Positions 2,447-50,591 of a stretch of 64,000 nucleotides of DNA are shown piece by piece. Source of the DNA: Candidatus Muiribacterium halophilum (lineage in GTDB: Bacteria > Muiribacteriota > Muiribacteriia > Muiribacteriales > Muiribacteriaceae); NCBI GenBank assembly GCA_023228995.1, contig JALOAD010000001.1, positions 84,603 to 148,602 on the forward strand. Reading direction: 5' to 3'. Made by a program: the position numbers and the translations under genes. A model generated the notes under the pieces. The model saw nothing but the letters and a program-made list of their open reading frames with translations, did not search any database and was not told the DNA's origin. Positions within the stretch are counted from its first letter, which is position 1, and the number at the start of each line of letters is the position of its first letter.

Positions 2447-5400
2447 TTAATTATTAAAATTTGGTTTGTATAAAGGTTCCCATTTAGTTGCATTTAAATC
2501 AAAATCATTTGAGTAAACATTTTCATTAAGTTGCCAACCTGATAAATTTTGATTAAATGCTATAGATTCACAAAACATAAAACTCATATCTGTAACATTT
2601 GAAGTCTTCCAATTTGATATATTTTGATTAAATGTTGTAGCATAAGAAAACATTCCATACATGTTTGTAACTTTTAAAGTATCCCAATTACCTATATCCT
2701 GATTAAATGCACTAGCATAAGAAAACATTAGCTTCATATCTGTAACATTTGAAGTATCCCAACTACTTATATCCTGATTAAATGCTGTTGCATTAAAAAA
2801 CATTCCATACATATTTGTAACTTTTGAAGTATCCCAATTACTTATATCCTGATTAAACACGCTAGCATAATCAAACATATAATACATATTACATTTTTCA
2901 CCAAAACCTTTATCCCACTTTAAAGAAACTCCACCATTATTAAATACACTTGCATTAGAAAACATAGAATTCATATTTATAACATTTGAAGTATCCCAAC
3001 TTCCTATATCCTGATTAAATGCTTTAGCATAACTAAACATACTAGTCATATCACAATTTTCACCAAAACCTTTATTCCAATTTAAAGAAACTCCATCATT
3101 ATTAAATACACTTGATTTATAAAACATTTTTTCAAAATTTTTAACTTTTGAAGTATCCCAACTTCCTATATCCTGATTAAATGCTATAGATTCACAAAAC
3201 ATAAAACTCATATCTGTAACATTTGAAGTATCCCAACTTCCTATATTCTGATTAAATGATCCTGTACTTTGAAACATTCGACTCATATTTATAACATTAG
3301 AAGTATCCCAATTACTTATATCCTGATTAAATACTGTAGCATAATAGAACATAAGACTCATATCTGTAACATTTGAAGTATTCCATACTGATAAATCCTG
3401 ATTAAATGCTTTAGCATGACCAAACATACCAGTCATATCACAATTTTCACCAAAACCTTTATTCCAATTTAAAGAAACTCCATCATTATTAAATACACTT
3501 GATTTATAAAACATTTTTTCAAAATTTTTAACTTTTGAAGTATCCCAACTTCCTATATCCTGATTAAATGCTATAGATTCACAAAACATAAAACTCATAT
3601 TTATAACATTAGAAGTATCCCAACTACTTATATCCTGATTAAATTTTTCAGCACAATAAAACATATAAGATAAATTCTCAACTGTTTTAGGAATGCTATT
3701 TGGTAATTTTTTAAAAAATATATAACTATCATCATTAAATGAACTCAAACAACCTTCAAGAGAATTTAAACCAATATCTCCAAATGAAATTATTTCAACA
3801 AGATAATTATGCCAAGGTGCATTTCCTGTTAGAGATTTTAATTCATCAGAAGTAAAGCCTAAATGATCAGCTTTGCCATATATTTTTACAGTATACTCAT
3901 TTATTGAAGTATAATTATGAGATGGTTGATCTATCTTTATATTCTCAATTTCACTACCATCACCCCAATCTATAAATACATTTAAATTACCTTTAAGAGG
4001 AATTACTAAAGCATCATTTGAATTTACTTTAAATTTTATTTCAAGAAGTTTTCCCCATTGAGCATATAATATTGTATCTTGAGTTATATTAAAAATAGTC
4101 CCTGGTAAATAAAATATTCCATTTCCATCACTTGATGTATTCCAAGCAAAAAATTCGTAATCTGTTTTTGTTAAATCTCCTTTCCCTGCTACTGAAACTT
4201 CTGGATTATAATCAGCGGAATTTACTAATGGTATTGTTCCACCTGTATTATCATTTCCATTATAAGTTAAATTATATTGTTTTATTTCAAAATCCGCTGT
4301 TATAATCACTTCTTTTGTTGGCATTGTGTAATTATAAGGATTTGAAGTTGATATAACTTTTTCACCAACTTTCCATTCTTTGAATTTATAATTTGTATTT
4401 GCTTCTGCTTTTATTTCTACTATCTGACCTTGAGAATAAAGTCCATTATTTGTTAATATTTTTCCATTATCGCCTGAATTAAAGGTTATTAAATATGTTT
4501 TATCCGATATAACAGTATTTTCAGTTATATTGTTAAAATATGTTGTTAATTCGGTCTTATCTGAAGAATTTAAAGTAGAAGTTACCTTTGTTATAATTGC
4601 ATTTTTATCTTTAATATCTACAAAATTATCAGTAATATAACATGCAATTCCAAGTTTTAATATTTTCTTAGTATTTTCAGTTTTGTTAATATTATCTATT
4701 GATGTATTAAGAGCATCTATTGTATTTCCAGTAATATTCTCAATATTTGTATTATTTACTGATACAACCGAACTTAATAAATTAATAATATCAAATTTAG
4801 GTTCATCAGTTGGAATTAACTCTTGAAGTTTTTCAAATTTTTCAACACTTAATAATGATTTAACATTATTTGCAAGAGGTTTTAAGATTTTTGTTATATT
4901 TGCAGTATTAATATCATCTTTATTTATTGCAGATTTTTCAAGCAATTCAATTAATCCATTAACTGCTATAGCTGATTGTAACCTTTTAATATGTTCAATA
5001 TTTAATTTTTCATTATCTTCAGGAAGAAATACCATTGGATTTGATAATATATCAGAAGAAGTAATTTTTATTTCAGCAGAAAAATCAAAAGCTTCATTCA
5101 GGATTATTGCAACTTCTTCTTTTGATAAATTATATTTAGAAACAAGAGTTGTTAATGGCGATAATACCACTCTTCCACTTATATCATTTTGTTCTGCAAT
5201 ACATTCAAGCAAAGGACCTGAATAATTTATACCATTATGTTTACCCTTAAATTCAGCATGCATTTTTATTTTTTGACCAATAATAATTTCGGTTGAAAAG
5301 TTAAATTCACCCTTATCATCAGAAATATCAGATATTATTTCATTAGTATCAATTATTCCATTATTATTAGAATCTATAAAAAACTTTGCACCAATAATAT

Positions 5401-5536
5401 ATGGATCAACCGCAACACCTGTTTTTGATAAAACCTTAGAATTATTAGTAACTCCACCACTACTTCCACCACATCCAATTAAAACCACAATTAACAATAA
5501 AGAAAATAATAATATTAGTTTGTTTTTATACAACAT
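2447..5536 (-). CDS. Large surface lipoprotein (lipobox LIGCGGSSGG). The N-terminal half has Listeria-Bacteroides-type repeat domains; the C-terminal half has more than 15 DUF285-type repeats (FNQDIxxWDTSNVTxMxxMF).
   Basis: Signal peptide + Cys lipobox. Reiterated ~26-aa FNQDI(S/G)xWDTSxVxxMxxMF units match the DUF285 (Mycoplasma/Listeria lipoprotein) repeat signature. YNLTYNGNDNTGG...FFAWNT and ITFNSGDNG...FKEWKVG segments resemble the Flg_new/InlB B-repeat. Confidence 0.8.
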   Translation of the reverse strand: MLYKNKLILLFSLLLIVVLIGCGGSSGGVTNNSKVLSKTGVAVDPYIIGAKFFIDSNNNGIIDTNEIISDISDDKGEFNFSTEIIIGQKIKMHAEFKGKHNGINYSGPLLECIAEQNDISGRVVLSPLTTLVSKYNLSKEEVAIILNEAFDFSAEIKITSSDILSNPMVFLPEDNEKLNIEHIKRLQSAIAVNGLIELLEKSAINKDDINTANITKILKPLANNVKSLLSVEKFEKLQELIPTDEPKFDIINLLSSVVSVNNTNIENITGNTIDALNTSIDNINKTENTKKILKLGIACYITDNFVDIKDKNAIITKVTSTLNSSDKTELTTYFNNITENTVISDKTYLITFNSGDNGKILTNNGLYSQGQIVEIKAEANTNYKFKEWKVGEKVISTSNPYNYTMPTKEVIITADFEIKQYNLTYNGNDNTGGTIPLVNSADYNPEVSVAGKGDLTKTDYEFFAWNTSSDGNGIFYLPGTIFNITQDTILYAQWGKLLEIKFKVNSNDALVIPLKGNLNVFIDWGDGSEIENIKIDQPSHNYTSINEYTVKIYGKADHLGFTSDELKSLTGNAPWHNYLVEIISFGDIGLNSLEGCLSSFNDDSYIFFKKLPNSIPKTVENLSYMFYCAEKFNQDISSWDTSNVINMSFMFCESIAFNQDIGSWDTSKVKNFEKMFYKSSVFNNDGVSLNWNKGFGENCDMTGMFGHAKAFNQDLSVWNTSNVTDMSLMFYYATVFNQDISNWDTSNVINMSRMFQSTGSFNQNIGSWDTSNVTDMSFMFCESIAFNQDIGSWDTSKVKNFEKMFYKSSVFNNDGVSLNWNKGFGENCDMTSMFSYAKAFNQDIGSWDTSNVINMNSMFSNASVFNNGGVSLKWDKGFGEKCNMYYMFDYASVFNQDISNWDTSKVTNMYGMFFNATAFNQDISSWDTSNVTDMKLMFSYASAFNQDIGNWDTLKVTNMYGMFSYATTFNQNISNWKTSNVTDMSFMFCESIAFNQNLSGWQLNENVYSNDFDLNATKWEPLYKPNFNN

Positions 5537-5709
5537 AATAACCTTACAAGTTAGATTTTAGTCATAGTAACACAATTTAATGATATAAACCAATAATAAC
5601 CCTCTTCAGGGTAGACCTGACCCCAATTTTTTTTAAAGTTAGATATTCCAAACAAATTAACTAGCTCTTATAACCCTATTATACATTTTTTTGTATTAAC
5701 AAATACTTT

Positions 5710-7068
5710 ATGTTATTATTTGCTATATATAATAATAGCAAACGAGGAAATCTGATGGAACAAGCTTTCTGGGTAATACTAACTTTATCCTCTGTAATAT
5801 CAATTCTAATATGTATTATATTTATATATTTTTACAATAAATTCAAGAAAACTTTCTTCTTAGAACTTGCTTTAGCATCATTTTTGTATGCTATACATAT
5901 ACCGGTAATAAATTTAATAACATCAATGACAAAACAAAGTTTAATAGGAATATTATCAGATAAAATCCTATTAATTTCAGCTTCTTATCTCTTCGTACAC
6001 GCAATATCAAAATTAACTGAAATAAAATTTTACAAAATAATACATTCTATATTCATTTTTGTTTTTTTCCTTGTTATAACACTTGAAATTTATTGCAATG
6101 AAATTTTCATTAAAGGTTCAGCTGGATTAATAATTTTTGCAACAGCATTTATTTATTGCGGAATACTTTTTTTTAGGAATAAAACTTTTATACGACATAA
6201 TCGAATTATACTCGGAAGTCTTTTTGTTATATGGGGATTAATACCATTTTTATATATACCTTATTATCTTAATGATAAACTTCCATTAATTCCTGTAATG
6301 CTTATTTTTACTGTTAAATTATTAATAAATTTTTTTATAATAATATTATTTTTTGAAGAAAGTAGAAAAGAAGTACTTATTAAAAATTTTGAAATTACAT
6401 CTTTGGAAAATACTAAAAAACAAATTCTATCAACAATAACACATGATATAAAATCTCCTCTTACATCATTAAGCGGTTATTGTGAACTTATAGTATCTGA
6501 AAAACTTGGAACTCTTACAAAAGAACAAAAAGAAAAAATATTAATAATGAAAAAAAATATCGATAAAATCAATTCAATTACTGATAGAATATCTTTTTAC
6601 TCAAAACTCACACGTTTTGAAAAAATCAATCAAGTTGAAAAAATATCAATAAAAAAACTTCTTTTTGATATTTCTGTTTATATTAGAAAAATAAACCCAG
6701 GAATATCAATCAATTTTGAATTTCCTGAAGATGAACTTATAATTCAAGTTGATTTCACCAAATTATCTGAACTTTTTTATATTTTAACCGATATAATGAC
6801 TAATTTTGAAAATAATCCATCAATTAATATATTATTTATAAGTTATCAAGATAAAGACAAAAACTATATTTTTGAAAATAAATTTTATTACAAAGAAAAA
6901 ATACAAAAAAATGAAATACTAAACATAACAGATGAGCAAAAGACATTTGGTGCTAATTTAATAAACAAAATATTTACTGATATTAATGCAAATATGAATT
7001 TAGATATAAAAGAAAATGAAAATTGTCTTATTATAAAAATAAAATTATTAGGATTTCCCCTTGATTGA
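5710..7068 (+). CDS. Polytopic membrane sensor histidine-kinase-like protein with a degenerate ATP-binding domain
   Basis: About 6-7 N-terminal hydrophobic helices, then a HisKA-like H-box (ILSTITHDIKSPLTSLSGYCELI). The C-terminal region has an N-box-like LTDIMTNFENN but lacks clear G1/G2 (DxGxG/GxGxG) motifs. Confidence 0.55.
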   Translation: MLLFAIYNNSKRGNLMEQAFWVILTLSSVISILICIIFIYFYNKFKKTFFLELALASFLYAIHIPVINLITSMTKQSLIGILSDKILLISASYLFVHAISKLTEIKFYKIIHSIFIFVFFLVITLEIYCNEIFIKGSAGLIIFATAFIYCGILFFRNKTFIRHNRIILGSLFVIWGLIPFLYIPYYLNDKLPLIPVMLIFTVKLLINFFIIILFFEESRKEVLIKNFEITSLENTKKQILSTITHDIKSPLTSLSGYCELIVSEKLGTLTKEQKEKILIMKKNIDKINSITDRISFYSKLTRFEKINQVEKISIKKLLFDISVYIRKINPGISINFEFPEDELIIQVDFTKLSELFYILTDIMTNFENNPSINILFISYQDKDKNYIFENKFYYKEKIQKNEILNITDEQKTFGANLINKIFTDINANMNLDIKENENCLIIKIKLLGFPLD

Positions 7069-8025
7069 ATCGATTATCGAATAATATTCATCATATTCAT
7101 CAACCCATATAACTTTTACACCAAGCTCGTTCAAAACACTTTCCTTAAGATAGTCATTAAGATATAAAAGACTTTTAATATCTTGATTATGAATATTTTT
7201 ATCATAAGAATGTTTTTGAACAGTATAATTAACAACACCTTGAAAATTAAGCTGAACAATTTCAAGAATTCTTCTTAAATTAGCATCATTAAAAGAAGTT
7301 CCAACAAAAAAAGAACCTGAATCCTTAAAACTAGTAAGCTGAACAATATTAGACCACGAAAACATTTCGGAAGAAGATTGTCTATTATAATCATCATCTG
7401 AAAAAACAATATTCATATTATCAAAATCTTTAATATGCTGAGGAAGATAACCATGAACATGATAAATTGGAAGAGAACTCTCTAAAAATTCAACATTACT
7501 ATCAAAAATACTCTTATGTTCAACATTATATTTATTAAGTTTTCTTTCAAGAAGATCATCAAAATTATAAGATATAACAGATTTTATATAATTAAACCTT
7601 GTAGGAACACAAAGCCGACCAATAGAACTAATAAGAGGGTTTTTCATAAAAACTTCTTTTGAATACAAAGCTCTTTCAATAGCTTCAAAAAAAGCTTCTG
7701 GACTACCAAATCCACTTTTTATATATCTAGCCTGTAAAATAAGCTCATCAGTTTTAAGTTTAAGGCTTTCCCAATCAGGCAAATCCATAACAACTTTATT
7801 AAGCACAAGGTCATTATAAAGAGCTTTAACAAGATCAGGCCACAAAGGAAGACCCGCAGCTTTTGAAACACCAGAACCCAGAACTAAAGTAAGTCTATTT
7901 GAATTATAAATTTTACGAATATCATAAATAAACTTATCTCGGTTTTTGTCCCAAGTTGTAAAACACTCTGTTAAGTCAAATGCACTAATTTTATTCATTC
8001 TATTATTATACCATTTATCAAGCAT
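7048..8025 (-). CDS. Stand-alone SIR2-like domain protein (SIR2_2 / defence-type sirtuin-like, predicted NAD+-consuming effector)
   Basis: 325 aa. Rossmann motif LVLGSGVSKAAGLPLWPDL (GxGxS..GlPxW), SYNFDDLLE (the TTNYDxLLE motif of SIR2_2) and YHVHGYL (HG motif). Same motif set as ThsA/DSR-type SIR2 domains. Last gene of the 12272->7048 operon. Confidence 0.7.
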   Translation of the reverse strand: MLDKWYNNRMNKISAFDLTECFTTWDKNRDKFIYDIRKIYNSNRLTLVLGSGVSKAAGLPLWPDLVKALYNDLVLNKVVMDLPDWESLKLKTDELILQARYIKSGFGSPEAFFEAIERALYSKEVFMKNPLISSIGRLCVPTRFNYIKSVISYNFDDLLERKLNKYNVEHKSIFDSNVEFLESSLPIYHVHGYLPQHIKDFDNMNIVFSDDDYNRQSSSEMFSWSNIVQLTSFKDSGSFFVGTSFNDANLRRILEIVQLNFQGVVNYTVQKHSYDKNIHNQDIKSLLYLNDYLKESVLNELGVKVIWVDEYDEYYSIIDSIKGKS

Positions 8026-8116
8026 AAAAACAATAGAATCCCGTGAATTGAGGTCAAACCCGCAGAGGCTGTTGATTTATTCAGAATCATGCAGGGATGA
8101 CAAAAATAAAGATAGT

Positions 8117-8524
8117 TTAAAGATTTAACTCAATATTATTCAATCCGTTTTCATAAAATTCATCCATATATTTTTTAAATATATTTTTGAATTCATCTAC
8201 CTGATCAGAATTCATCTTGTCTGAAAAATAAAGATTGTGTTTGTTTATTATATCTCTTTCAGATAATCTTCGTCCAAGTTGTTCCCAAAATATATTATCA
8301 ACAAACTTTTCTTTGAAATCTTTTATTTCCAATAGTGTATTGAGTTCATCTTGTCTTGATCTAAAGCCTTTTTCTTCAAGAGCTTTAATTACTTTTAATT
8401 CCAGTTCTTTTAAATTATCATCTTTCTCAAACACTGTAAGACATGGCTCATTAAATTTTTCATTACCAAGATGTATTAATTTTAAAAGTAGTTTATATTC
8501 TTTTTCTGACAAGTTTAGTGCCAT
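8117..8524 (-). CDS. Small predicted all-helical hypothetical protein (135 aa)
   Basis: Open frame overlapping the upstream gene by 32 nt (translational coupling). Lys/Glu-rich helical composition, no recognised motif. Confidence 0.5.
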   Translation of the reverse strand: MALNLSEKEYKLLLKLIHLGNEKFNEPCLTVFEKDDNLKELELKVIKALEEKGFRSRQDELNTLLEIKDFKEKFVDNIFWEQLGRRLSERDIINKHNLYFSDKMNSDQVDEFKNIFKKYMDEFYENGLNNIELNL

Positions 8525-8873
8525 GTTTTATCTTCCTCTCTTTTCTTGCAAAAAATACATCACCCGGAACCCAACCTCTTTCTCCAATAGCATTTTTACA
8601 ATAATACCACGAAGATGATTTTTCAAGAATTGCTAATTTTTCTCCAGTTTTAATATCAAGTTCTCCTGAATAATAATCTTTTTTTATTTTAACATGAAAA
8701 TCTTCGCCAAATTCAATATAATCAATAGGTACCCATGCTCTTTTACCGTTTTCTTTAACACACCATCTAAATCCTGGCCAAGGAGATTTCTTTTTTGTAT
8801 ATATACAAATCTCATCTTGCTCGTAAAAAATATTTTCATCTGTTGACTTTCTATAGTCTTTTAATGCTATCAT
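8493..8873 (-). CDS. Small cytoplasmic protein with two tandem SH3-like domains (126 aa)
   Basis: Two consecutive segments fit the SH3 pattern (ALxDY...E.xF..GD.I.....WW....GxxGxVPxxYV): ALKDYRKSTDENIFYEQDEICIY...WPGFRWCVKENGKRAWVPIDYIE and KIKKDYYSGELDIKTGEKLAILEKSSSWYYCKNAIGERGWVPGDVF. It starts 4 nt after the STAND gene stop. Confidence 0.55.
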   Translation of the reverse strand: MIALKDYRKSTDENIFYEQDEICIYTKKKSPWPGFRWCVKENGKRAWVPIDYIEFGEDFHVKIKKDYYSGELDIKTGEKLAILEKSSSWYYCKNAIGERGWVPGDVFFARKERKIKHGTKLVRKRI

Positions 8874-8877
8874 TCTT

Positions 8878-11439
8878 CTACTCCATTATAATACAATAAT
8901 CATTTTTTAATTCAAACATATATGTTTTAGTCTTTCTGGAATTTACAAGTGTATCCATAAATATCTTCCTAAGACTGTGTACACTTACTCTTAGAAGATT
9001 CAAGTCTGACAAATCTTCAAGTTTTCTTCCCCATACTTTTTCATAAATTTCATCTGAATTTAATTCTTTTCCTATATTAACACAAAAAAGTTTTAAAAGT
9101 TTTAATAATATGGTCTTTTTAAAAATATCATGTTTTTTTCCAAATACTAAAATTTCTTGATTAATAAAATCAATATAAATGTTATATTTCTCTTTTTTAC
9201 TGCTATATTCTTTCATTTCATAATATTCAATTTTTCTTTTAACACCGTTTACATTAATTTCAAAAAAACTACCACTTTGGTTTTTTTCAACAATAAATCT
9301 CAATCTATTTATTTCTCTAACTATAATAACAGAATTATAAAATGATAATCCTTGAATTATATTATTAATATCCTTGTTTTCTATCATATTTACTATTGAT
9401 TCAGCAAATACTTTCATATATTCCCAATCAGAAATATTTAAACTTTCTATTTCATTTTTTAAATTAATTTTATCTTTATCAATAATATATTTTAACACGA
9501 TATAATCTAAAAAAAACAAGTTATAAAATATGTAATAATTATTTTCTTTAAAAAATTTTAAGCTTTGCTCTATTTTAATATAAGCTTTGTAATAATCGTT
9601 TTTTAAAATATATATATGACCTAGTAATGCACTGTAAAAACCGTTTGTATTTTCCAATTCAAGAAATTTATCACCTGTTATTCCAAAAATTGATTTTTTT
9701 TCAAAAATTTTAATATATAAAATAACATATACAATTCTCTTATTAATAGTCTTTGCTTTATCATAATCTGCATAATATAAAAATTGTCTATAATACTCAT
9801 AAGCTTTCATTTTTGATCTTTTTGATAATTCAACAAGCGATAAATTAAAATATATATCTGATAATTTTTGTTTGTCATAATATGGATATTTTTCAATTAT
9901 ATCATTTAATACAAAATGACATTTATCATGTTCCATGAGATATAAATAACATTCACCCATTAATGCTTTTAAATTAATAAGTAATTTAAGCGAAACATTT
10001 TCACTTGATTTATCAATAAAATCTTTAAGATTTATTATACAGCTTTGAAGTAAACATAATTCTCTTTCTTTAAAAATTGTAATATATTGTATAATTATTT
10101 TTTCAGGTTTCGTTAAATTATCTGTTTTTAATTGTTCTTTAAATGAATTATTCAAATAAAAGGAATTTACTTTCAATAATAAATCTCTTTTTTTAGAATC
10201 ACATAATCTTTCTACATTTTCAATAAAAATATTTTTCTTTTCTTTTGTTAAAGCTTGTATCCACATATTATAATAATAAATTTCATCGTTAAATTCGCAA
10301 AGATATTCAATGTTTTCTTCAAGAAAAATATTCAAGTCAATATTATTTACAAAATCTATTGGAAAATTTTCAAAAGCATTTTTTATATATAAACAACATT
10401 TAAAATAATCTTCCGATGATTTAGAAAAAGTTATATATTCAAAAAAATTATCGACTGAAAATATATATTTTTCTTCGTAAAATTCAAGTATTTTTTTAGA
10501 TGTTTTTGTTATAATTTTTTTATCTGAATTATTAAGAATTGATATTTTCATCATATCTGAACATTTAATATTATTATCAATATCTTGTTCAATTACAAAA
10601 TGATTTTTTAAAAAATTTATATCATCTTCTTTAATATTAAAAAAATCAATAAAGTTTTTTTTATTTACTGCTATATTAAAAAAAGATAATAAAAACGTTA
10701 TTTCCTTCCTTTTTTGTGTAAGACCTTCATAATCAAGATAATTAATTTCTTTATTTATTGCATTAAGAAATGCATTTCCTTCAAATATATCATTTATTGA
10801 AAAATCATAACTTGTAAAAAGTGATATAAAAACTTTAATATATAAAGGAATTCCACCTGTTTTTTTATAAATTTTATTAAGCCAAAAAGAAGATATTTTT
10901 TTGTTATTTTGTCCTATAGAAATTTTTTCAACAAGTTTTACAAACTCAATATAATCAAGTTTTTTAACATTATAATGATAAATATCACTTTTTACACTTA
11001 AAGGAATTTCGATAAATTGTGAAGATAAAACAATAAGTTTTGAATTGTAAAAAATATCAAAAGCTTCTCTTATAAACTCTGAATGATCAATAAGACAAAA
11101 ATTGAAATTATCAAGTAAAATATAATTATTGTTTTTTTCTAAATATTCCAGAAATTCTCGAATATTGGCATTTTGATTGATTTTTAAATTATATTTAGTA
11201 TTTAGTAAATTGATTAATTCTTTAAAATCCATATTTCTTGTTACTTTAGCATATAATATTTTATTGTTTTTTCTATCAATATTAATATTTTCTAGAGCTT
11301 TTATAATAAAAGAAGTTTTACCAACTCCACGCATTCCATATATAAAAAAAATTGAAAAATCGTTGAATTTGTTTTTTAATCTTTCAATTTCATCTTTTCT
11401 ACCAGTAAAATTAACTAATTTTGAAAATTCTCTTTTCAT
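8878..11439 (-). CDS. STAND-type P-loop NTPase (AAA_16-like, helical/TPR-like middle) with a C-terminal OmpR/PhoB-type winged-helix DNA-binding domain
   Basis: 853 aa. FTGRKDEIERL + Walker A GMRGVGKTSF + Walker B-like YILLDNFNF in the first 120 aa. A long helical repeat region follows. The C-terminus (DIFKKTILLKLLKLF..GKELNSDEIYEKVWG....LLRVSVHSLRKIF) aligns with the Trans_reg_C motif (EF.LL.LL....G.V.sRe.L...VWG.......rtVdVHIrRLRKKL). Confidence 0.75.
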   Translation of the reverse strand: MKREFSKLVNFTGRKDEIERLKNKFNDFSIFFIYGMRGVGKTSFIIKALENINIDRKNNKILYAKVTRNMDFKELINLLNTKYNLKINQNANIREFLEYLEKNNNYILLDNFNFCLIDHSEFIREAFDIFYNSKLIVLSSQFIEIPLSVKSDIYHYNVKKLDYIEFVKLVEKISIGQNNKKISSFWLNKIYKKTGGIPLYIKVFISLFTSYDFSINDIFEGNAFLNAINKEINYLDYEGLTQKRKEITFLLSFFNIAVNKKNFIDFFNIKEDDINFLKNHFVIEQDIDNNIKCSDMMKISILNNSDKKIITKTSKKILEFYEEKYIFSVDNFFEYITFSKSSEDYFKCCLYIKNAFENFPIDFVNNIDLNIFLEENIEYLCEFNDEIYYYNMWIQALTKEKKNIFIENVERLCDSKKRDLLLKVNSFYLNNSFKEQLKTDNLTKPEKIIIQYITIFKERELCLLQSCIINLKDFIDKSSENVSLKLLINLKALMGECYLYLMEHDKCHFVLNDIIEKYPYYDKQKLSDIYFNLSLVELSKRSKMKAYEYYRQFLYYADYDKAKTINKRIVYVILYIKIFEKKSIFGITGDKFLELENTNGFYSALLGHIYILKNDYYKAYIKIEQSLKFFKENNYYIFYNLFFLDYIVLKYIIDKDKINLKNEIESLNISDWEYMKVFAESIVNMIENKDINNIIQGLSFYNSVIIVREINRLRFIVEKNQSGSFFEINVNGVKRKIEYYEMKEYSSKKEKYNIYIDFINQEILVFGKKHDIFKKTILLKLLKLFCVNIGKELNSDEIYEKVWGRKLEDLSDLNLLRVSVHSLRKIFMDTLVNSRKTKTYMFELKNDYCIIME

Positions 11440-12227
11440 TTTTTTTCCTTAAAACATTGTGATAAGATTTTAAATGCTTTACTTGGACAAGCAATAATAT
11501 CTTTTTTAAGCGGTTTTCCATTTAAAATATCATAATCAAAAAATAAATCTTCTCCATCTATATATTTCACACAAAGACCTGAAGCATAACAAATACTAAC
11601 AGCGCCTAAAATATCCCATATTTTAACTTTACCACAATGAGCAGCAAGTACACTTGATTTTGCAGCAAAAACAAGATGAAGAGCAGTCGAACCAAAAGAT
11701 CTTAATTTACCTGGAAATTTTATTGAAATATTTCTCATACTTTTGGAATCAATACATATAGAATCTGTTTTACAAAGATCTTCACGGTTAAAGACACAGG
11801 AATTAATTTCAGAATAATTAAGAAATGCACCAAAATCAGGTCCACCATAATAAAGTTCATCAAATATTGGAGAATATATAAGTCCAAAATAAGGTTTTTT
11901 ATCTTTCAGAAGTCCAATACTTATGCACCAGCCAGGAAGTTTCATTGCATAAGAATGAGTGCCATCGATTGGATCGACAGCCCATATAAATTCAGATTCT
12001 AAATTCAAATTATTATTATTACCTTCTTCACCTATAACAATTCCTTCAAATTCCTCTTCTAATTTACTTTTTATAAATATTTCAATTTCCTTATCAGCAA
12101 TTGTTACATGAGAACCATCTGGTTTTAAATCGTATCCAGTAAATGGATTTTTATAATATCTTAAAGCAATTTCACCTGCTTGTTTTATTATTTCTACAGT
12201 TTTTGTAATTAATTTTTCATTTTCCAT
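11436..12227 (-). CDS. Inositol-monophosphatase (FIG/IMPase) family phosphatase (SuhB/CysQ-like)
   Basis: Motifs IGEEG, WAVDPIDGTHSY (WxxDPxDGT) and KIWDILGAVSI (WDxxA). The ORF track begins at a TTG at 12272, but that TTGACT looks like a -35 box. The ATG at 12227 (MENEKL) has a GAGGA SD. Stop overlaps the STAND start (ATGA). Confidence 0.8.
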   Translation of the reverse strand: MENEKLITKTVEIIKQAGEIALRYYKNPFTGYDLKPDGSHVTIADKEIEIFIKSKLEEEFEGIVIGEEGNNNNLNLESEFIWAVDPIDGTHSYAMKLPGWCISIGLLKDKKPYFGLIYSPIFDELYYGGPDFGAFLNYSEINSCVFNREDLCKTDSICIDSKSMRNISIKFPGKLRSFGSTALHLVFAAKSSVLAAHCGKVKIWDILGAVSICYASGLCVKYIDGEDLFFDYDILNGKPLKKDIIACPSKAFKILSQCFKEKK

Positions 12228-12239
12228 AATATCCTCAAG

Positions 12240-12278
12240 ATAAATACTACAATTCCAATAGTATAAAGTCAAAAAAAA
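12240..12278 (-). promoter_or_regulatory. Putative sigma70-type promoter of the IMPase-STAND-SH3-SIR2 operon (TTGACT-17bp-TAGTAT, then GAGGA SD)
   Basis: Minus-strand read: tttttttttGACTttatactattggaattgTAGTATttatcttGAGGAtattATG. It sits immediately after the subtilase terminator. Confidence 0.35.
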
Positions 12279-12302
12279 AGTGCAGATTTCTCTGCACTTT
12301 TT
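12271..12302. terminator. Bidirectional rho-independent terminator (A-run, AGTGCAGA-tttc-TCTGCACT, T-run)
   Basis: Perfect 8-bp stem flanked by A9 and T5. On the minus strand it ends the subtilase gene. Confidence 0.65.
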
Positions 12303-12333
12303 GGAATTTTTAACTAGCTATACAATTTTGAAG

Positions 12334-13746
12334 TTAAAAAGCAAATTCAATTGCAAGTCTTTTTTCAAAATCAGTCATTGGAGCTCTTAAATGTAATGAT
12401 CTTGTGATGTTATCAGCAATTTCATCCATTGAAGCAGAAATTGCATCATTGATATTAGCAAGTGATTTTGAATATCTTGCTGCCTGAACTGCTCTGTTTA
12501 TATTTATTACTCCGCCTGAAATAACTTTATCTGAAAGCCAGTCTTTTTTGTCAACTGTTTTCATTATTATATCTTTAACTTCAACAGCTGTGAGTTCAGG
12601 GTTTTCATTAAGCATAAGTGTAGCAACTCTCGCAGCATAAGGAGCAGCCTGAGAAGTACCAGACATATAACCCATTTTACCATTAGGATAAGTTGATAAT
12701 ATATTAACACCAGGAACAGCTACATCAACTTTATTTATAGCAAAACATGAAAAAACAGCAAGGTTTTTATCATTATCAGTTGCTGCAACAACAAGTTTAT
12801 TGTCAATTTTTACATCATTTGGAGATGATACAATGTTTTCGAGATTTTCAGAAGAATTCCCAGCTGCTATTACAATTAAAGCATTAGGAACTTTTGAGAA
12901 AAGCTCTTTATCTTTTGGAAGTAGAGCAAGTTCAACAAAAAGATTGACCATTTCTTGAACATCTTCTTCAGTAGGATTTGCAAAACCCCATTGTTCAACC
13001 ATAGTTTGTTTAAAAGAAGCCATAAGCTGTTGGTTTTCAGTACCAAATGAACAGTTAATAACTCTAGGTGCTAATTCTCCAACATAATCTCTTTCTTTTG
13101 CAACACCTTGAGCCTGCTGCATACCCATATAAGCAAAATAATTTTTAATTTCTTCCATTGTAGGAGCTTTTTCTTCTCCACTTCTTGTAGTAAGAGATGC
13201 TCTTAAACCTCTTGCAGCATCTTCAATAAGCTGAGCTACTGGTGGTTCTCCAACTGGAATATGAGAAATTGCTTTCATATTAATTACATCGTTATTTCTA
13301 GCGATAATACCGCCAACATGTGAACCATGAGCCCATCCACCTGTAAAATTAACCCATGCATTGAATTCTTTATTTTGATAATTAGTTAAAAGAAAATTGA
13401 ATTCATCCGCACTTAAAGAATCTTTACCGTAAACTGTGAGTTTACCAATAAGTTCCATAAATCTAAGAACATCATCATATCTTGGTGGCTGATATTCTGA
13501 ATGAACAAGAGTTCCAGTGTTTTCTACAAAATTCCAACCATAAATATCATCAATATAACCGTTACCATCTTCATCTACACCTTCAATTCCATTAAATTCA
13601 GCTAAATTAATATCAGCAACAGGTCCAAGTTTTTCATGATTAAAATCAGTACCTGAATCCATTACTAATACTGGAATTTTTGAGTCAGCAAATGAATTTA
13701 AACTAAGAATTGCTACCATAGTTATTGCTATCATGCTTTTTTTCAT
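12334..13746 (-). CDS. Secreted subtilisin-like serine protease (peptidase S8)
   Basis: Signal peptide. Catalytic triad contexts VLVMDSGTD (Asp), GGWAHGSHVGGIIA (His), GTSQAAPYAARVATLM (Ser). Confidence 0.8.
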   Translation of the reverse strand: MKKSMIAITMVAILSLNSFADSKIPVLVMDSGTDFNHEKLGPVADINLAEFNGIEGVDEDGNGYIDDIYGWNFVENTGTLVHSEYQPPRYDDVLRFMELIGKLTVYGKDSLSADEFNFLLTNYQNKEFNAWVNFTGGWAHGSHVGGIIARNNDVINMKAISHIPVGEPPVAQLIEDAARGLRASLTTRSGEEKAPTMEEIKNYFAYMGMQQAQGVAKERDYVGELAPRVINCSFGTENQQLMASFKQTMVEQWGFANPTEEDVQEMVNLFVELALLPKDKELFSKVPNALIVIAAGNSSENLENIVSSPNDVKIDNKLVVAATDNDKNLAVFSCFAINKVDVAVPGVNILSTYPNGKMGYMSGTSQAAPYAARVATLMLNENPELTAVEVKDIIMKTVDKKDWLSDKVISGGVININRAVQAARYSKSLANINDAISASMDEIADNITRSLHLRAPMTDFEKRLAIEFAF

Positions 13747-13819
13747 ACTTTATTCCTCCATACAAAAATACTTACCATTATTATAATCGAATACAACAAA
13801 TATATCTACAACTTTTTTT

Positions 13820-15061
13820 TTAAGACTCTTGAATTGGAAGTTCTATTCTAAAACCAGCTCCACTTCCCTGTTTTGAATAAACGAAAAAATTACCATTGTG
13901 ATTTTCTGTAATAACAAAATAGCTTATTGCAAGACCTAATCCAGTACCTTTTCCAACATCTTTTGTAGTAAAAAAAGGCTCAAATATTCTTCTTTTTACC
14001 TCATCTTTAATATAAGGTCCATTATTCCATATATCAATTGTCAAATAAACTTCATCAGAAAATACATCAATCCTAATTTCAGGATTCAAAACTTCCGCAT
14101 AAAACAACTCATGAGCGGCATTTTTTAATATATTAACAATTACCTGTTCAATTTCAATTTTATTACATAAAATATCTTTAATATCACTATGTATATTTTT
14201 TCTAATTTTAACCTTTTTAAAATCATATTTATTTTCAGAATTATATTCATTATTTAAAAGATTTAAACAATCATCAAAAATCCCAGAAATATTGCATAAC
14301 ATTTTGCTTTTAGAACTTTTTCTTGAAAAAGAAAGCATATTTGAAATAATATTAGTTGCTTTTAAACTAGATTTTTTAATATCATTTATAAATTTAATTA
14401 CAGTTCTATTTTCAAGATATTGATCAATTTTTTTTATATCTACACCTATTTCTTCAGCAAATTTAATATTTTTAGGATTATTTTTATCAATTCTTCTTGT
14501 AATATTTTGAACAGCTTGATTTATACCAGATAATGGATTATTAATCTCGTGAGCCATACCAGCTGCAAGACTTCCAATACTAATCATTTTTTCATTTTGT
14601 AAAAGAATTTCTTGAAATTTCACCGAATTTGTAACATCATCAATTCTAATAACAGCACCAGCTCTATAATCAAAACTAATTGGAAATACAGTAATATCAA
14701 TATAAGTGTTTGTTGATTTAATAAAAATTTTAGATAATGTTTCAGTAATTCCGCCTAATAAAGTTCTTTTTACAATTTCAAATGAACCTGGAATATCTTC
14801 AAGAATAGTTTCTATTTTTTGTCCAACTAATTTTTCTTCAGGTAAATCAAAAAAATCTATTGCTCCAAGATTAACTTTTTCAATTGTAAAATCATCTTTT
14901 ACACTTATTATAACCGATGGCATAAAGTTAAATATGCTGTAAAAATATTTTGTAGTATCATCAAGAGCTTTAGTTCTTTTAATAACTTCTCTTCTTAATT
15001 TTTTATTAATATAATAAAAAAAGGTAAATATCATAATACTAATTCCAATAAGCATAACCAT
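13820..15061 (-). CDS. Sensor histidine kinase, PAS + HisKA + HATPase_c portion (C-terminal part of a frameshifted binding-domain/kinase fusion)
   Basis: H-box MAHEINNPLSGINQAVQNI. ATPase G-boxes DIWNNGPYI and GKGTGLGLAISY. N-terminal TM helix. Confidence 0.85.
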   Translation of the reverse strand: MVMLIGISIMIFTFFYYINKKLRREVIKRTKALDDTTKYFYSIFNFMPSVIISVKDDFTIEKVNLGAIDFFDLPEEKLVGQKIETILEDIPGSFEIVKRTLLGGITETLSKIFIKSTNTYIDITVFPISFDYRAGAVIRIDDVTNSVKFQEILLQNEKMISIGSLAAGMAHEINNPLSGINQAVQNITRRIDKNNPKNIKFAEEIGVDIKKIDQYLENRTVIKFINDIKKSSLKATNIISNMLSFSRKSSKSKMLCNISGIFDDCLNLLNNEYNSENKYDFKKVKIRKNIHSDIKDILCNKIEIEQVIVNILKNAAHELFYAEVLNPEIRIDVFSDEVYLTIDIWNNGPYIKDEVKRRIFEPFFTTKDVGKGTGLGLAISYFVITENHNGNFFVYSKQGSGAGFRIELPIQES

Positions 15062-15279
15062 AGAAATTGCAAAAATTCTTGAAAATCTATCTGCGTTATT
15101 TAAAAGATTATAATTAATCCATTTTCTGTATATTTCAAGTTTTTTTTCATAATCAATTTCATTTAAAGCTTTATTAAAAATATCTCTTAAAATAACATTA
15201 TCTTTTGAAAATCCAAATGTATTTTTAATTCTAAAATTAATTTCTCCTGAAATATATAAATTAGTAAAATTCTCTTTTT

Positions 15280-15885
15280 CTAAAAAAAAGAAATTGGAGC
15301 AATATTATCAATAAAATAATCAACAATACCCAAAGAAACCATCTTTAATCCAGTAGATATATCATGAACAAGATTAAAATTTAATTCTGGATATTTATCG
15401 CTAAGATAATCATAACTTGAATAACCTTTAACCAAAGCTATTGTTTTATTTGCAAGCATTTCTTCGCTTATAGCAGTTTTTATTCTGTTTCTTGAAACAA
15501 TAACAGCTGGAAAATCAAGATAAAAATCAGAAAAAATATATTTTTGAAGCTTTATATTTGTTATTGCAACACTAGTCATTAAATGTGATTTTTTTTCATC
15601 AATTTTTGATAAATAATCTCTATCATAATAAATATTAAATTTAATATTTAATAATTTAGAAATCTCAATTAAATAATCAGAAGAAATACCTTGATATATT
15701 CCATTATTATCAAAAAATTCAATTGGACTATAAGAACCGTCTGTATATATTGTGAGAATTGGATTTTCTTTTAAATATTGAATTTCTTCATTTGTTAAAT
15801 TAATTCCAAAAGTATTATATGAAAAAAATATCAATAAAAATATAAATTTGAAAACAAAAGATTTACAACAAAAAGTATTTTTCAT
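15280..15885 (-). CDS. Periplasmic solute-binding domain (SBP_bac_3-like), N-terminal part of the same sensor kinase, truncated by a frameshift
   Basis: Signal peptide + LTIYTDGSYSPIEFFDNNGIYQGISSDYLIEISKLLN (family-3 SBP fold). The frame continuing after the T8 run at 15282-15289 reads ...DIFNKALNEIDYEKKLEIYRKW... straight into the kinase start MVMLIGIS. Confidence 0.7.
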   Translation of the reverse strand: MKNTFCCKSFVFKFIFLLIFFSYNTFGINLTNEEIQYLKENPILTIYTDGSYSPIEFFDNNGIYQGISSDYLIEISKLLNIKFNIYYDRDYLSKIDEKKSHLMTSVAITNIKLQKYIFSDFYLDFPAVIVSRNRIKTAISEEMLANKTIALVKGYSSYDYLSDKYPELNFNLVHDISTGLKMVSLGIVDYFIDNIAPISFF

Positions 15886-16054: not shown

Positions 16055-19045
16055 TTAATAACTAACTCTTACAACAGTAAATTCTCCAACTCCACCTTCA
16101 TAATTCTCAGTTACAAATATTATTTTGCGATTAACTTCATCTCTTATAGTATTTGTTACAGAATCAGCCGAATTAGGATCTAAAGATTTGGAAAATTCAG
16201 TGCCGAGCTTTATTATAGGAAATCCAGCTTGATCTGGAATTAAAAACACATAGTTTTTTCCATCTGCTTGCATAATAGAATACATCTGATTATCAGTAAG
16301 ACTTGTAATATCATTTATTATATTATTTTCTAAATCAAGTAAATTAACAGAATCGCCATAATTTTCTTCGAATATTAAAAATCCATTATTGTTTTCATCT
16401 TCAAAATATTTAAGCTGATTAAACTGATTACATGTAAGATTGTTAAAACTATTTTCAATAACTTTTGAAGGTGTTTGCCATACACCATTATCAAGCTCAG
16501 AAAACCATATATGATCAAGTTCATTCTGATCTCTTGCAGAAAAATATATTTTTTCAACATTAGATAAATTTTTATAATAAAATGCAAAACCCGATTCTCT
16601 AATATCTATATCAGAAAGATTCTCAGTCGGAGTTGAATATACTTCCACTGTATCACTAAATGAATTTCCATCAAATGTATTATATATAAGCGAGTGTTTA
16701 TTACTATCCCATTCTGCTTTTACAAAAATTTGATGAAAAACACCATCTTTATAAATAGCACTTGGCACTGGAGAATAAGTATAATTAAAATCAGTATAAT
16801 TTGTAAAATTATTACTATTATAATTAAAGAATACAGTTCTATAACCCAAAGAAGGATTCGTTCCATTAGGAGATTCAAATACTAAGTAAGCTCCCAAAGA
16901 ATTATAGAAAATATCATGAAAGCAATTAATATCTTCACCAGGAGAAACTGTATAAATAATCTCAGTACCATCTGCCAAACAAGCTACAATGTCACATGAA
17001 CTATTCATATAAAATATTATAACATCTCCCGAATTATCAAGAGCAATTTTTATTTGTGAAGAAACATCAGCCAAAGTTATTTCTTCAAAAGTAATATTAT
17101 TTATATTTATTGAATAAGATTCACTAATATCATTTTCAAATCTATTATAAGCTTTAAATGAAAGATCGCATGAATAATCAAACTCTAATGGATAAACATT
17201 TCTTGTATCATAAAAATATGAATAATGACCTGGTTTAAGATTAATTAATCCTTCAGTTAACGGTGCATATTGTGCAGGTTCATAAACGCTTATATCAACT
17301 GAAACTGTATCATATAAAACATCAAAGCTAAATTGTATAATCCTAGAATCATTTAATTGAGTAAAATTCGCTATTTGTGAAGTTCTATTATCTATGCTGA
17401 AAGTTTGAGATTCAACAAATGCTAAAGGGTTTTCAGAAGGTGTAATTTTTATTTTAATTTCAGATATAGTTTCTGCTACTTCATTAAAACTTTCCCACAT
17501 TACTGTATATGTTCCAGGAGAAAGATTTGTAATATTATCAGAAGAATTCAAAGTTATAGCCTGATATTCTTGATTATTAATTTTAGCTTCTAATAAAACT
17601 GAAGTTCTTTTATATAAAACAGTAAAAGCTATAGGAATATCAAATCTATTATGATTAACATTTAATTGCGTTATAATCGGAATTATTTCTCCACCAGTGT
17701 TTACAACTACTCCAGTCAAATTTTCAAGTATTGTATAATCTGTAATATTAGGATTATTTTGAAGATCAATCCTTTTTAAATTAGGCATATCAAGCAACAC
17801 AGATAAATCTGATATATTAGTATTTGATAAAGATAAATTTTCAAGATTTGAAAGTCCTGCTAGAGATGTTATATCTGATATTCCATTTCCAGATAGATTT
17901 AGCGAATTTATAGTTGAAAGATTTGCTAAAGATGTTATATCAGATATTTTATTTCCAGACAAATTTAAAGCTTTAACTGATGTTAAAGCTGAAAGTGCTG
18001 AAATATCTGAAATATCATTATTTGAAAGATCAATGTTTTCAAGATTTTTACAAAATTCAAGCCCATTAAGACTTATTAAAGAAGTTTGGTTAGCTTTATT
18101 TGGTGCTGTTTTGGATGGACCAGGTAATGGTCCAGTTCCAGAATATGCTAGTGATATAAACTCAGCATGTGAAAGAAGTTCATCTGTAAGATAATCTTCA
18201 GATAGTACAGAAACTCCGTTAATTGTATTTAAAGTTTCTATAACTTTATTTCGTAAATTAGGATCTGTAAAATAATAAGTTTTTGTGTTGATTTCACTTA
18301 ATAAAACCCTATCATTTGTATCATTTTGATAAACATCGATTTTATAATCTTTGCCATTATCAAGATCAGTTAATACATAAATAATATTTTCAATAGTTCC
18401 GGAATAAGTAAAATTATAAGTATCAAACAAAATATTATTAACTTCAATATCATAATTGGTTGAAAATGAAGGTGATTGCCATGCAATACCAATACTATTT
18501 GAACTTTTTTCAAAAACTTCAGGAGTTTTATTTAAAGGAATTTCAATTTCCCATGAATTATATGAAATACTAACATAAGTAGTGTTATTATCGATTATTT
18601 TTATTTGTTCATTATAGTAAAATGGTATTGCATCATTTGAATTAATTGGTATAAAAAAGAAAAAATAATCTCCAGCAGCTATTTCCCCAATATTAACTCC
18701 ATTCTCATGTGGACTACCCGGTTTTACATCATATGTTTTAAAAAAAACATCATCTCTTTTACTTAAAATATCTGCAATTATAAGATTACTATGTTCTGAA
18801 GTAACTAAATCACTTACTGCATTATATACACCTAATGGAGCAAGAATAACTTCTATAGTATTAATTCCAAGATGTCTTGGTGGAGCTTTACGGTTTGTAC
18901 TATTTACAGGCCATTCAACATTAACATTAAGAGAATTTCCTGTGAATTTAGGACTTATATCAACACTGCGATTGCTACCGCATCCAGCAATAAAAAGCAT
19001 AAAAACAACCAAAATGCTTAAAGAAAAAATATATTTTTTACACAT
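16055..19045 (-). CDS. Large surface lipoprotein with leucine-rich repeats (internalin-like) and Ig/FN3-like domains
   Basis: Lipobox FIAGCGS. 22-aa LRR units (LSNNDISDISALSALTSVKALNLSGNKISDITSLANLSTINSLNLSGNGISDITSLAGLSNLENLSLSNTNISDLS). Confidence 0.8.
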   Translation of the reverse strand: MCKKYIFSLSILVVFMLFIAGCGSNRSVDISPKFTGNSLNVNVEWPVNSTNRKAPPRHLGINTIEVILAPLGVYNAVSDLVTSEHSNLIIADILSKRDDVFFKTYDVKPGSPHENGVNIGEIAAGDYFFFFIPINSNDAIPFYYNEQIKIIDNNTTYVSISYNSWEIEIPLNKTPEVFEKSSNSIGIAWQSPSFSTNYDIEVNNILFDTYNFTYSGTIENIIYVLTDLDNGKDYKIDVYQNDTNDRVLLSEINTKTYYFTDPNLRNKVIETLNTINGVSVLSEDYLTDELLSHAEFISLAYSGTGPLPGPSKTAPNKANQTSLISLNGLEFCKNLENIDLSNNDISDISALSALTSVKALNLSGNKISDITSLANLSTINSLNLSGNGISDITSLAGLSNLENLSLSNTNISDLSVLLDMPNLKRIDLQNNPNITDYTILENLTGVVVNTGGEIIPIITQLNVNHNRFDIPIAFTVLYKRTSVLLEAKINNQEYQAITLNSSDNITNLSPGTYTVMWESFNEVAETISEIKIKITPSENPLAFVESQTFSIDNRTSQIANFTQLNDSRIIQFSFDVLYDTVSVDISVYEPAQYAPLTEGLINLKPGHYSYFYDTRNVYPLEFDYSCDLSFKAYNRFENDISESYSININNITFEEITLADVSSQIKIALDNSGDVIIFYMNSSCDIVACLADGTEIIYTVSPGEDINCFHDIFYNSLGAYLVFESPNGTNPSLGYRTVFFNYNSNNFTNYTDFNYTYSPVPSAIYKDGVFHQIFVKAEWDSNKHSLIYNTFDGNSFSDTVEVYSTPTENLSDIDIRESGFAFYYKNLSNVEKIYFSARDQNELDHIWFSELDNGVWQTPSKVIENSFNNLTCNQFNQLKYFEDENNNGFLIFEENYGDSVNLLDLENNIINDITSLTDNQMYSIMQADGKNYVFLIPDQAGFPIIKLGTEFSKSLDPNSADSVTNTIRDEVNRKIIFVTENYEGGVGEFTVVRVSY

Positions 19046-31153: not shown

Positions 31154-31266
31154 TAATTAGATGCAAATCATCGCTAATTAGCAATTTATTGCGTTAATTG
31201 CTTTCAATCTTCAACTCTTTAACCCATTAACCCTTTAACCATCTCACTATCTCACTATCTCACTTT

Positions 31267-50587: not shown

Positions 50588-50591
50588 AAAA

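Follow-up and report, generated by a model that had tools for sequence, protein, structure and literature searches.

Slippage in A/T runs is dominated by single-base insertions and rises exponentially with run length (PMC5574713). Several genes are known whose frames are joined in this way: a run of eight As in human apoB gives ∼10% rescue, two open reading frames (ORFs) of Shigella mxiE are joined at a run of Ts, and the programmed slippage of Thermus dnaX uses a run of nine (A9) (PMC1088944). In Blochmannia and Buchnera, genes that are frameshifted yet conserved are reportedly rescued by slippage, with ∼30% full-length transcripts (PMC3017870). At the level of translation, Sharma et al. list U_UU.U_UU.U among the heptamers shifting at >0.1% without stimulators in E. 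coli (PMC4066793). At the DNA level, homopolymer length changes are described in two-component genes, i.e. the C6/C7 tract of bvgS (PMC1891110) and the poly-A/T runs of flgS and flgR (PMC8355987). Here we analyze a sensor histidine kinase gene of the uncultured halophile Candidatus Muiribacterium halophilum that is split at a run of eight Ts. The gene lies on the minus strand of a 64,000-nt stretch of assembly GCA_023228995.1 (contig JALOAD010000001.1, positions 84,603 to 148,602); this whole stretch is referred to as the window, and coordinates are counted from its first letter.

The explanation that we favor, with a probability of roughly 0.6, is a recent, fixed loss-of-function allele: a young pseudogene, possibly rescued by leaky slippage, that is annotated as two genes. 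Lesions of this kind are well known, and the present one adds a further example; literature searches on the organism and its accessions found nothing.

A kinase gene split at a T8 run

The break in the gene is real and consists of a 1-nt frameshift within the T8 run. Its parts are as follows.

13820..15885, minus strand: whole ancestral gene as reconstructed, a 688-aa sensor histidine kinase when the run is read as T9
15280..15885, minus strand: upstream ORF, 201 aa; hydrophobic leader and first ∼3/4 of SBP_bac_3; ends with TAG inside the T run
15282..15289, minus strand: T8 homopolymer, the frameshift site (A8 on the plus strand); in the zero frame U_UUU_UUU, then UAG
15062..15286, minus strand: start-less continuation in the −1 frame; repaired residues ∼201-275, with the end of SBP_bac_3 (last strand and helices) and the start of the transmembrane (TM) helix
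13820..15061, minus strand: downstream ORF, 413 aa; starts at an internal Met in the TM helix; PAS/HisKA/HATPase
about 14657-14914, minus strand: PAS_9, in the 413-aa ORF
about 14411-14572, minus strand: HisKA, with the phospho-acceptor His446 at 14549-14551
about 13829-14161, minus strand: HATPase_c, in the 413-aa ORF

On the minus strand, positions 15300-15270 read GCT CCA ATT TCT TTT TTT TAG AAA AAG. The 201-aa ORF ends with ...DNIAPISFF-TAG; its stop codon (15280-15282) overlaps the run, the T of TAG being the eighth and last T, and the continuation is in the −1 frame. As judged from the ORFs and their frames, the run is prone to transcriptional slippage and at the same time forms a correctly phased slippery heptamer for a −1 shift. 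Read from 15286, the frame one base upstream is FLEKENFTNLYISGEINFRIKN...DIFNKALNEIDYEKKLEIYRKW...; it begins F L E K E N F T N L Y I S G E I N F R I K N, stays open for about 486-489 codons from the run to the stop at 13820 and takes in the 413-aa ORF. The tract and the ORFs thus match exactly the original prediction, made from the sequence, of a kinase split by a 1-nt frameshift at plus-strand A8 15282-15289. Its further claim, that adding one T joins the 201-aa ORF to the PAS-HisKA-HATPase ORF, was confirmed, the −1 frame being open through to 13820. A change from T8 to T9 restores the 688-aa ORF, as expected of a ±1 homopolymer switch. The junction peptide expected from the restored frame is MVSLGIVDYFIDNIAPISFFLEK, and a synonymous, interrupted version of the run would be TTCTTCTT.

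Downstream of the tract, the −1 frame offers no possible start (ATG, GTG or TTG) until 15061. This leaves ∼73 codons open and start-less, an arrangement with a chance of ∼7e-4 by our own arithmetic from base composition; the stretch 15062..15286 is therefore untranslatable unless the frame changes. Read-through or reassignment of TAG was considered and rejected: by our reading, the zero frame past TAG meets another stop after ∼30 codons that are unlike the homologs. TAG is the rarest stop codon in the window, used by five of 48 ORFs, the 201-aa ORF included.

A search of 5.8 billion protein clusters found the 411-aa and 201-aa products at 100% identity as Candidatus Muirbacterium halophilum. 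The NCBI label of the 201-aa ORF is ‘transporter substrate-binding domain-containing protein’; public records call the 413-aa ORF ‘ATP-binding protein’ and give it three different Met starts (413, 411 and 404 aa).

Domains and structure of the repaired kinase

The T9-repaired protein has, in order, an N-terminal hydrophobic leader, a periplasmic SBP_bac_3 domain of the Venus flytrap (VFT) type, a TM helix, PAS, HisKA and HATPase_c. In the 688-aa sequence Pfam places SBP_bac_3 at residues 44-258, PAS_9 at 325-410, HisKA at 439-492 (E=3.8e-8) and HATPase_c at 576-686 (E=3e-18). The restored product is therefore the canonical binding-domain/TM/PAS/HisKA/HATPase kinase that had been predicted, an architecture shared by many single-ORF homologs of ∼680-705 aa. 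There is only one SBP_bac_3 domain, and neither Response_reg nor Hpt has a Pfam match in the repaired protein. Across the junction, the match to the SBP_bac_3 profile extends over positions 1-131 of 132 in the repaired protein vs 1-96 of 132 in the 201-aa ORF alone, which means that the break is inside the binding domain and not between domains.

Structural comparisons agree on the same parts. Among PDB entries, the VFT domain of EvgS (9ilw) matches residues 28-259 (E=1e-20), VFT2 of BvgS (4q0c) matches residues 33-256, and the Thermotoga kinase ThkA (3a0r), the closest solved kinase, matches residues 314-684. In the AlphaFold model of the repaired protein (mean predicted local distance difference test score, pLDDT, of 72), the 201/202 junction falls within a predicted helix, 195-204. 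The strand 218-227 and the helix 231-243, both encoded in the −1 frame past the tract, belong to the parts of the domain that are modeled with the highest confidence (pLDDT 84-91), and the hydrophobic TM segment is carried by a long helix, 246-321. By Pfam and AlphaFold alike, the fold of the 201-aa product is incomplete, its last strand and helices being absent.

The catalytic motifs were compared with those of 119 homologs. The H box is intact (AGMAHEINNPL, with His446; the His is kept in 119/119 homologs), and the N box (N585, N589), the F box FEPFFTTK and the G2 box GTGLGL agree with the homologs. The G1 ATP-lid box is NNGPY (13975-13989, minus strand) vs DNGPG in 117/119 homologs. We considered this a possible sign of kinase decay and rejected it: the box is identical in a sister species (contig L084, introduced below, at ∼240-255), and ThkA (3a0r) has NSGPP there. 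NNGPY thus seems, from these sequences, to be a tolerated lineage-specific variant.

The gene is a disrupted member of the SBP_bac_3 (VFT) sensor histidine kinases of the class I HisKA type; in place of the single ORF usual for such a kinase, it has TAG in the T8 run and its continuation in the −1 frame.

Homologs and single-gene ancestry

The protein search returned many single-ORF homologs of 678-705 aa with the same SBP_bac_3-PAS-HisKA-HATPase architecture and 29-32% identity over 93-100% of the query. Examples are P0013, P0018, P0019, P0021-23, P0029, P0035, P0043 and P0044, several of them from Maridesulfovibrio/Desulfovibrio. Homologs that are normally two genes would have spoken against a broken kinase; those found were single ORFs of about 680-705 aa.

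An alignment of ten homologs with the T9-repaired protein is gap-free at the junction, and its invariant columns N209, L233, L241, I244, I252 and W256 all fall within the start-less stretch. Repair to T6 would leave the protein one residue short; deletion of one base from a T9 run is thus the most parsimonious history. With a binding domain that spans the break and a gap-free alignment to single-gene homologs, these comparisons show that the ancestor was one gene.

Orthologs covering the tract itself were sought in three ways. In the protein search with the sensor half, none was found apart from the strain's own pieces, the only other match having 27% identity. A scan of metagenome contigs with the sensor-domain protein gave no relatives. 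A scan of genome contigs with the repaired protein was saturated by the GMAHEINN motif and produced relatives from other phyla only (33-41% identity), which are useless for tract comparison.

Expression context of the two ORFs

The two ORFs could have become separate functional genes, one for a secreted binding protein and the other for a membrane-anchored, sensor-less kinase. Some kinases are known to receive their signal from a free binding protein, as in LuxP/LuxQ and TorT/TorS, which counts in favor of such a fission, as does the 413-aa ORF, which retains a hydrophobic N-terminus and a complete kinase core. However, the 201-aa product is without the last strand and helices of the fold, the missing 73 codons are conserved yet start-less, and the homologs are fused. 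Furthermore, the putative start codon of the second gene, ATG 15061, lies inside the TM helix (...AISMVMLIGISIMIFTFFYYI) and lacks a ribosome-binding motif: a Shine–Dalgarno (SD)-like motif was not found before it, though a GGAGG/GAGG-like motif stands upstream of most genes in the window. Taken together, these observations make a functional fission extremely improbable.

The gene has a leucine-rich repeat (LRR) protein gene and an S8 peptidase gene as neighbors; no response regulator gene adjoins it. The LRR protein (996 aa, 16055-19045, minus strand), a putative surface protein, is encoded directly upstream of the kinase gene. A promoter/terminator scan was uninformative, with 22 promoter-like sites vs 20.5 expected.

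Reliability of the T8 consensus

Both ORFs are present in three other public contigs: GCA_023230945.1 (JALNWI010000011.1), the Logan contig SRR8449813 and ENA ERZ27247376 k141_523975. All of these are assemblies of the same strain; each has T8 and matches the window at 100% identity, over 3.6, 8.2 and 11.2 kb. A second NCBI protein accession of Ca. M. halophilum, from a second MAG (MCK9474359.1), carries the identical 201-aa product; the longest contig recorded for this product is 172 kb.

Homopolymers are classic sites of indel errors, and T8 could be a sequencing or assembly artefact, with T9 in the true genome and the gene intact. The public copies may all come from related read sets. Also, a sister-species contig (L084), set against the window here, shows homopolymer frame breaks in at least three genes (at T7, A7 and A9 runs within 10 kb), so that such errors do occur in public data for this lineage. 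The window itself behaves differently. There are 42 A/T runs of at least 8 nt inside its ORFs (37 of length 8 and five of length 9), and 41 of them, the five A9 runs and the T8 runs at 9509, 11344 and 18740 included, keep the frame; the kinase T8 is the sole one that breaks a frame inside a domain. This indicates that the assembly is accurate at homopolymers. The three further assemblies have T8 at 100% identity over up to 11 kb, and their names, as we read them, hint at different pipelines (k141/MEGAHIT-style, Logan and NCBI metagenome-assembled genome, MAG). An artefact is therefore very unlikely.

A homopolymer scan of the window for junctions of two long open frames gave seven candidates. 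Three overlapping pairs were rejected as split genes, since Pfam shows separate adjacent genes (SmpB/amidase, DUF5752/TreT and unknown ORF/LigT); the three remaining candidates (two 4-nt stop/start overlaps and one inside a long ORF) were dismissed by eye only.

Age of the frameshift

The sister contig L084 mentioned above is a 10.6-kb ENA contig (ERZ21862645 ctg21418l), which encodes a relative, 89% identical, of the S8 peptidase whose gene adjoins the kinase gene. This contig is syntenic with window positions 5756-14272 at ∼74-78% nucleotide identity and begins with the last ∼120 codons of the kinase ortholog. It ends at residue ∼567 of the kinase, ∼370 codons downstream of the tract, and so does not cover it.

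Over 101 clean codons of the kinase C-terminus, the ratio of non-synonymous to synonymous substitution rates (dN/dS) between the two species is 0.24. The neighboring genes have 0.07 (S8 peptidase), 0.21 (inositol phosphatase), 0.12 (SH3) and 0.08 (SIR2); the kinase value is within or near this range of 0.07-0.21. Such a ratio means that purifying selection acted on the kinase during most of the period after the species separated. By this sequence measure, the frameshift would be young, or the gene still in use. No further degenerative lesions were found in the ∼486-489 open codons, whose motifs are intact, and dN/dS gave no sign of relaxed selection. That so many codons are open at 26% GC, together with the intact boxes and a dN/dS of ∼0.24, leads to the conclusion that the lesion is recent.

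On the sister contig, the frame breaks are at ∼296, ∼1860 and ∼4745 (T7, A7 and A9), in the kinase, S8 peptidase and STAND NTPase genes; all three genes are intact in the window at those sites. These breaks are probably long-read homopolymer errors, and the contig is unfit for judging reading frames.

Tract length and phase variation

The original prediction raised the possibility of phase variation, i.e. an ON/OFF switch by homopolymer slippage. In such a contingency locus, T8 (OFF) and T9 (ON) would interconvert by replication slippage, giving subclones with and without the sensor kinase. The idea has some attraction: a one-base homopolymer change gives back an intact 688-aa kinase, the gene has no other damage and was under purifying selection until recently, and the bvgS C6/C7 (PMC1891110) and flgS/flgR poly-A/T (PMC8355987) tracts are precedents among two-component genes.

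Searches for alternative alleles found T8 only. Exact look-ups in ∼15 billion public proteins returned the T8 products and no products of T5, T6, T7, T9, T10, T11 or T12 alleles, and a DNA pattern allowing T4-T14 had 0 matches in JGI metagenome contigs. The proposed comparison of tract length among strains or isolates could be made among copies of one clone: no polymorphism was seen between the window and the three assemblies (all T8), consensus assemblies of one clone being unable to reveal minor alleles.

The tract is not longer or rarer than the genome background: in this genome of 26% GC, A/T runs of 8 occur 44 times in the 64-kb window, and runs of 9 occur 11 times. It is ordinary also among the 37 coding 8-mers and five coding 9-mers, the others of which are all in frame. 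In addition, a Campylobacter review treats changes in short A/T tracts as non-reversible mutations and not as true phase variation (PMC8355987). The kinase gene is outside the surface-antigen and restriction-modification classes typical of contingency loci, and the organism is known only as an environmental MAG; both facts count against a switch. In sum, the evidence for ON/OFF slippage contains nothing positive, and reversible phase variation appears unlikely.

The coding homopolymers of the whole window have a sense-strand bias, with poly-A in 5/5 9-mers and 28/37 8-mers. A sense-strand T9 is absent from all ORFs of the window; the putative ancestral T9 of the kinase would be the sole one in 64 kb.

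Slippage and recoding at the run

Alternatively, T8 could be the working state of the gene, with a meaningful amount of full-length kinase made by U8 to U9 slippage, by −1 frameshifting or by both, besides a truncated, secreted 201-aa fragment. The slippery heptamer is in phase directly before the stop codon. If ribosomes slipped by −1 on U_UUU_UUU (15283-15289), both tRNA-Phe would re-pair perfectly and translation would go on with UUA GAA AAA GAG; the product, ...SFFLEKEN... as derived from sequence and frames, is the same as that of T9 repair. Thus, both mechanisms give the homolog-like FFLEKEN junction. The motif class U_UU.U_UU.U is shift-prone at >0.1% when unstimulated (PMC4066793), slippage insertions in A/T runs rise exponentially with length (PMC5574713), frameshifted genes of AT-rich symbionts are reportedly rescued by slippage (PMC3017870), and the downstream frame shows no decay.

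Nevertheless, the accessory elements of a recoding site were not found. There is no downstream hairpin or pseudoknot: the fold of 15180-15300 (minus strand) has a minimum free energy of −13.6 vs a shuffle mean of −14.8 (z = 0.46). Nor is there, by reading the sequence, an SD-like or GGAGG-like element in the 30 nt upstream of the T run. The aligned homologs are single ORFs, so that the frameshift arrangement is not conserved among them, and the run has 8 nt vs 9 in the programmed Thermus dnaX site. Moreover, the genome tolerates dozens of coding A/T 8-9-mers, which suggests, by the argument of Baranov et al., that slippage there is neither very costly nor very frequent. Hence functional recoding is decidedly unlikely here, and slippage is a plausible source of trace amounts of full-length protein rather than a designed mechanism.

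Put more broadly, it is doubtful that the T8 run is either a working recoding element or a T8/T9 switch in a free-living member of the candidate phylum Muirbacteria. If it were, the lineage would have its first described contingency or recoding locus, located in a signaling gene rather than a surface or mobile-element gene.

A probable recent loss-of-function allele

The original prediction treated phase variation, sequencing error and pseudogenisation as equally possible. In our analysis they are not equal. Sequencing error is disfavored by T8 in three further assemblies and by the other 41 long coding homopolymers in frame, and a fixed OFF allele, i.e. pseudogenisation, is best supported.

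We propose the following course of events. An ancestral T9 run in a single-VFT sensor kinase gene would have lost one T by replication slippage, and T8 is now the consensus in every available assembly of the strain. Ribosomes that begin at the native start would stop after 201 residues, within a binding-domain helix. What follows of this domain, its last strand and helices, would be left start-less, and the kinase module could be made only from an internal Met, which lacks a ribosome-binding site. Truncation within the fold, a start-less remainder and such an internal Met make a loss-of-function allele most likely. As in pseudogenes, a domain that homologs have intact is interrupted by the lesion, and what lies downstream lacks its own start. 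A small full-length fraction may still arise from non-programmed events, either an extra U added by RNA polymerase in U8 or a −1 slip before UAG; both routes would give exactly the ...APISFFLEKEN... junction.

Four observations weigh against this explanation. No ortholog covering the tract was found, so the T9 ancestry leans on distant homologs of 29-32% identity. All assemblies are of one clone (100% identity) and maybe from shared reads, and say little of minor alleles or heterogeneity. The total absence of secondary lesions is also compatible with continued expression of the gene, whether through slippage or following a reversion. Finally, the in-phase U_UUU_UUU before the stop is a plausible site of appreciable frame restoration, given the apoB and mxiE precedents.

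For annotation, the two unrelated-looking coding sequences ought to be joined into a single sensor-kinase gene marked as disrupted. If they are entered as a transporter component and a soluble kinase, the signaling and transport inventories of a candidate phylum known from MAGs only would be distorted. The locus also offers a case of gene inactivation that is very young and arose at an A/T run, in a genome of 26% GC. Should T9 or U9 molecules be shown in reads or transcripts, it would become a modest example of homopolymer switching or leaky rescue outside pathogens and endosymbionts.

Other features of the window

A complete four-gene type III Wadjet anti-plasmid system occupies 36665-44418 on the minus strand (PADLOC E-values 1e-78 to 1e-167). 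Its region has the lowest GC of the window (0.20 at 36-40 kb).

43354-44418, minus strand: Wadjet JetD3 (PADLOC)
41763-43376, minus strand: Wadjet JetA3 (PADLOC)
41074-41766, minus strand: Wadjet JetB3/DUF6063 (PADLOC)
36665-41074, minus strand: Wadjet JetC3, 1469 aa (PADLOC)

A possible defence island is located at 7048-11439 (minus strand), with its gene order kept at 3040-7282 of the sister contig. Besides the two genes listed below, it holds a 135-aa ORF without matches and a gene for an 853-aa STAND NTPase with N-terminal NB-ARC/nSTAND6, a weak C-terminal Trans_reg_C and no PADLOC match.

7048-8025, minus strand: SIR2_2 protein with a weak ThsA-like PADLOC match
8493-8873, minus strand: SH3-domain protein

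A second kinase-like gene (452 aa, 5710-7068, plus strand) has HisKA only, without HATPase_c at E<=0.001; its counterpart on the sister contig is called as four fragments. A trehalose cluster at 28878-33172 (minus strand) includes a GT20 trehalose-6-P synthase, a trehalose phosphatase, a TreT-type trehalose synthase and DUF5752, as would suit a halophile that makes compatible solutes. At 49505-51131 (plus strand), a 360-aa ORF without a Pfam match overlaps a 205-aa LigT-like phosphoesterase ORF by 74 nt near A7 50586-50592; the LigT domain looks complete, and the overlap is probably due to a mis-called start rather than a frameshift. Finally, a 1029-aa DUF285 (Mycoplasma-type) repeat protein with Listeria-Bacteroides repeats is encoded at 2447-5536 (minus strand) and is a putative surface protein.

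Comparison with known systems

In domain order and length (688 aa vs 678-705 aa), the repaired kinase is like the single-VFT kinases of Maridesulfovibrio/Desulfovibrio and others (P0013, P0018-P0023, P0029, P0035, P0043 and P0044). These differ in having unbroken ORFs and DNGPG in the G1 box, vs NNGPY here, and none is a close ortholog.

The bvgS gene of Bordetella pertussis likewise encodes a sensor kinase with VFT and PAS domains, and a 1-nt change in a coding homopolymer (C6/C7) truncates the kinase (PMC1891110). There, virulent/avirulent phase variation has both alleles observed and interconverting, whereas every copy of the T run known so far is in the OFF state (T8). The two tracts also differ in base and setting: poly-C in a GC-rich pathogen for bvgS, poly-T here, in an environmental bacterium of 26% GC with many such runs. 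In BvgS, two VFT domains go together with a receiver and HPt, while our kinase has one VFT domain and no receiver; it is therefore outside the BvgS/EvgS-type hybrids, which are defined by two tandem VFT domains with C-terminal receiver and HPt.

Closer in base composition are flgS and flgR of Campylobacter jejuni, two-component genes of an AT-rich genome that are inactivated by indels in short A/T runs (PMC8355987). Those events were shown experimentally under strong selection and are described as mostly non-reversible; the event described here is known from assemblies alone.

As for recoding, the run shares with the −1 programmed ribosomal frameshifting sites of dnaX and the IS3/IS911 family an X_XXZ_ZZN heptamer in phase and a −1 frame that encodes a functional continuation. 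It differs from them in the lack of a downstream structure and of an upstream SD-like stimulator, and in an arrangement that is not conserved among the distant homologs aligned. With the slippage-rescue systems (mxiE, Thermus dnaX, apoB and Buchnera/Blochmannia) it has in common overlapping frames that are joined by an added base in an A/T run. In the symbionts, the frameshifts have been kept in different populations and species; here, the run has 8 nt and the aligned homologs are unbroken. The single U that must be added to restore the kinase frame is the dominant type of slippage error (PMC5574713).

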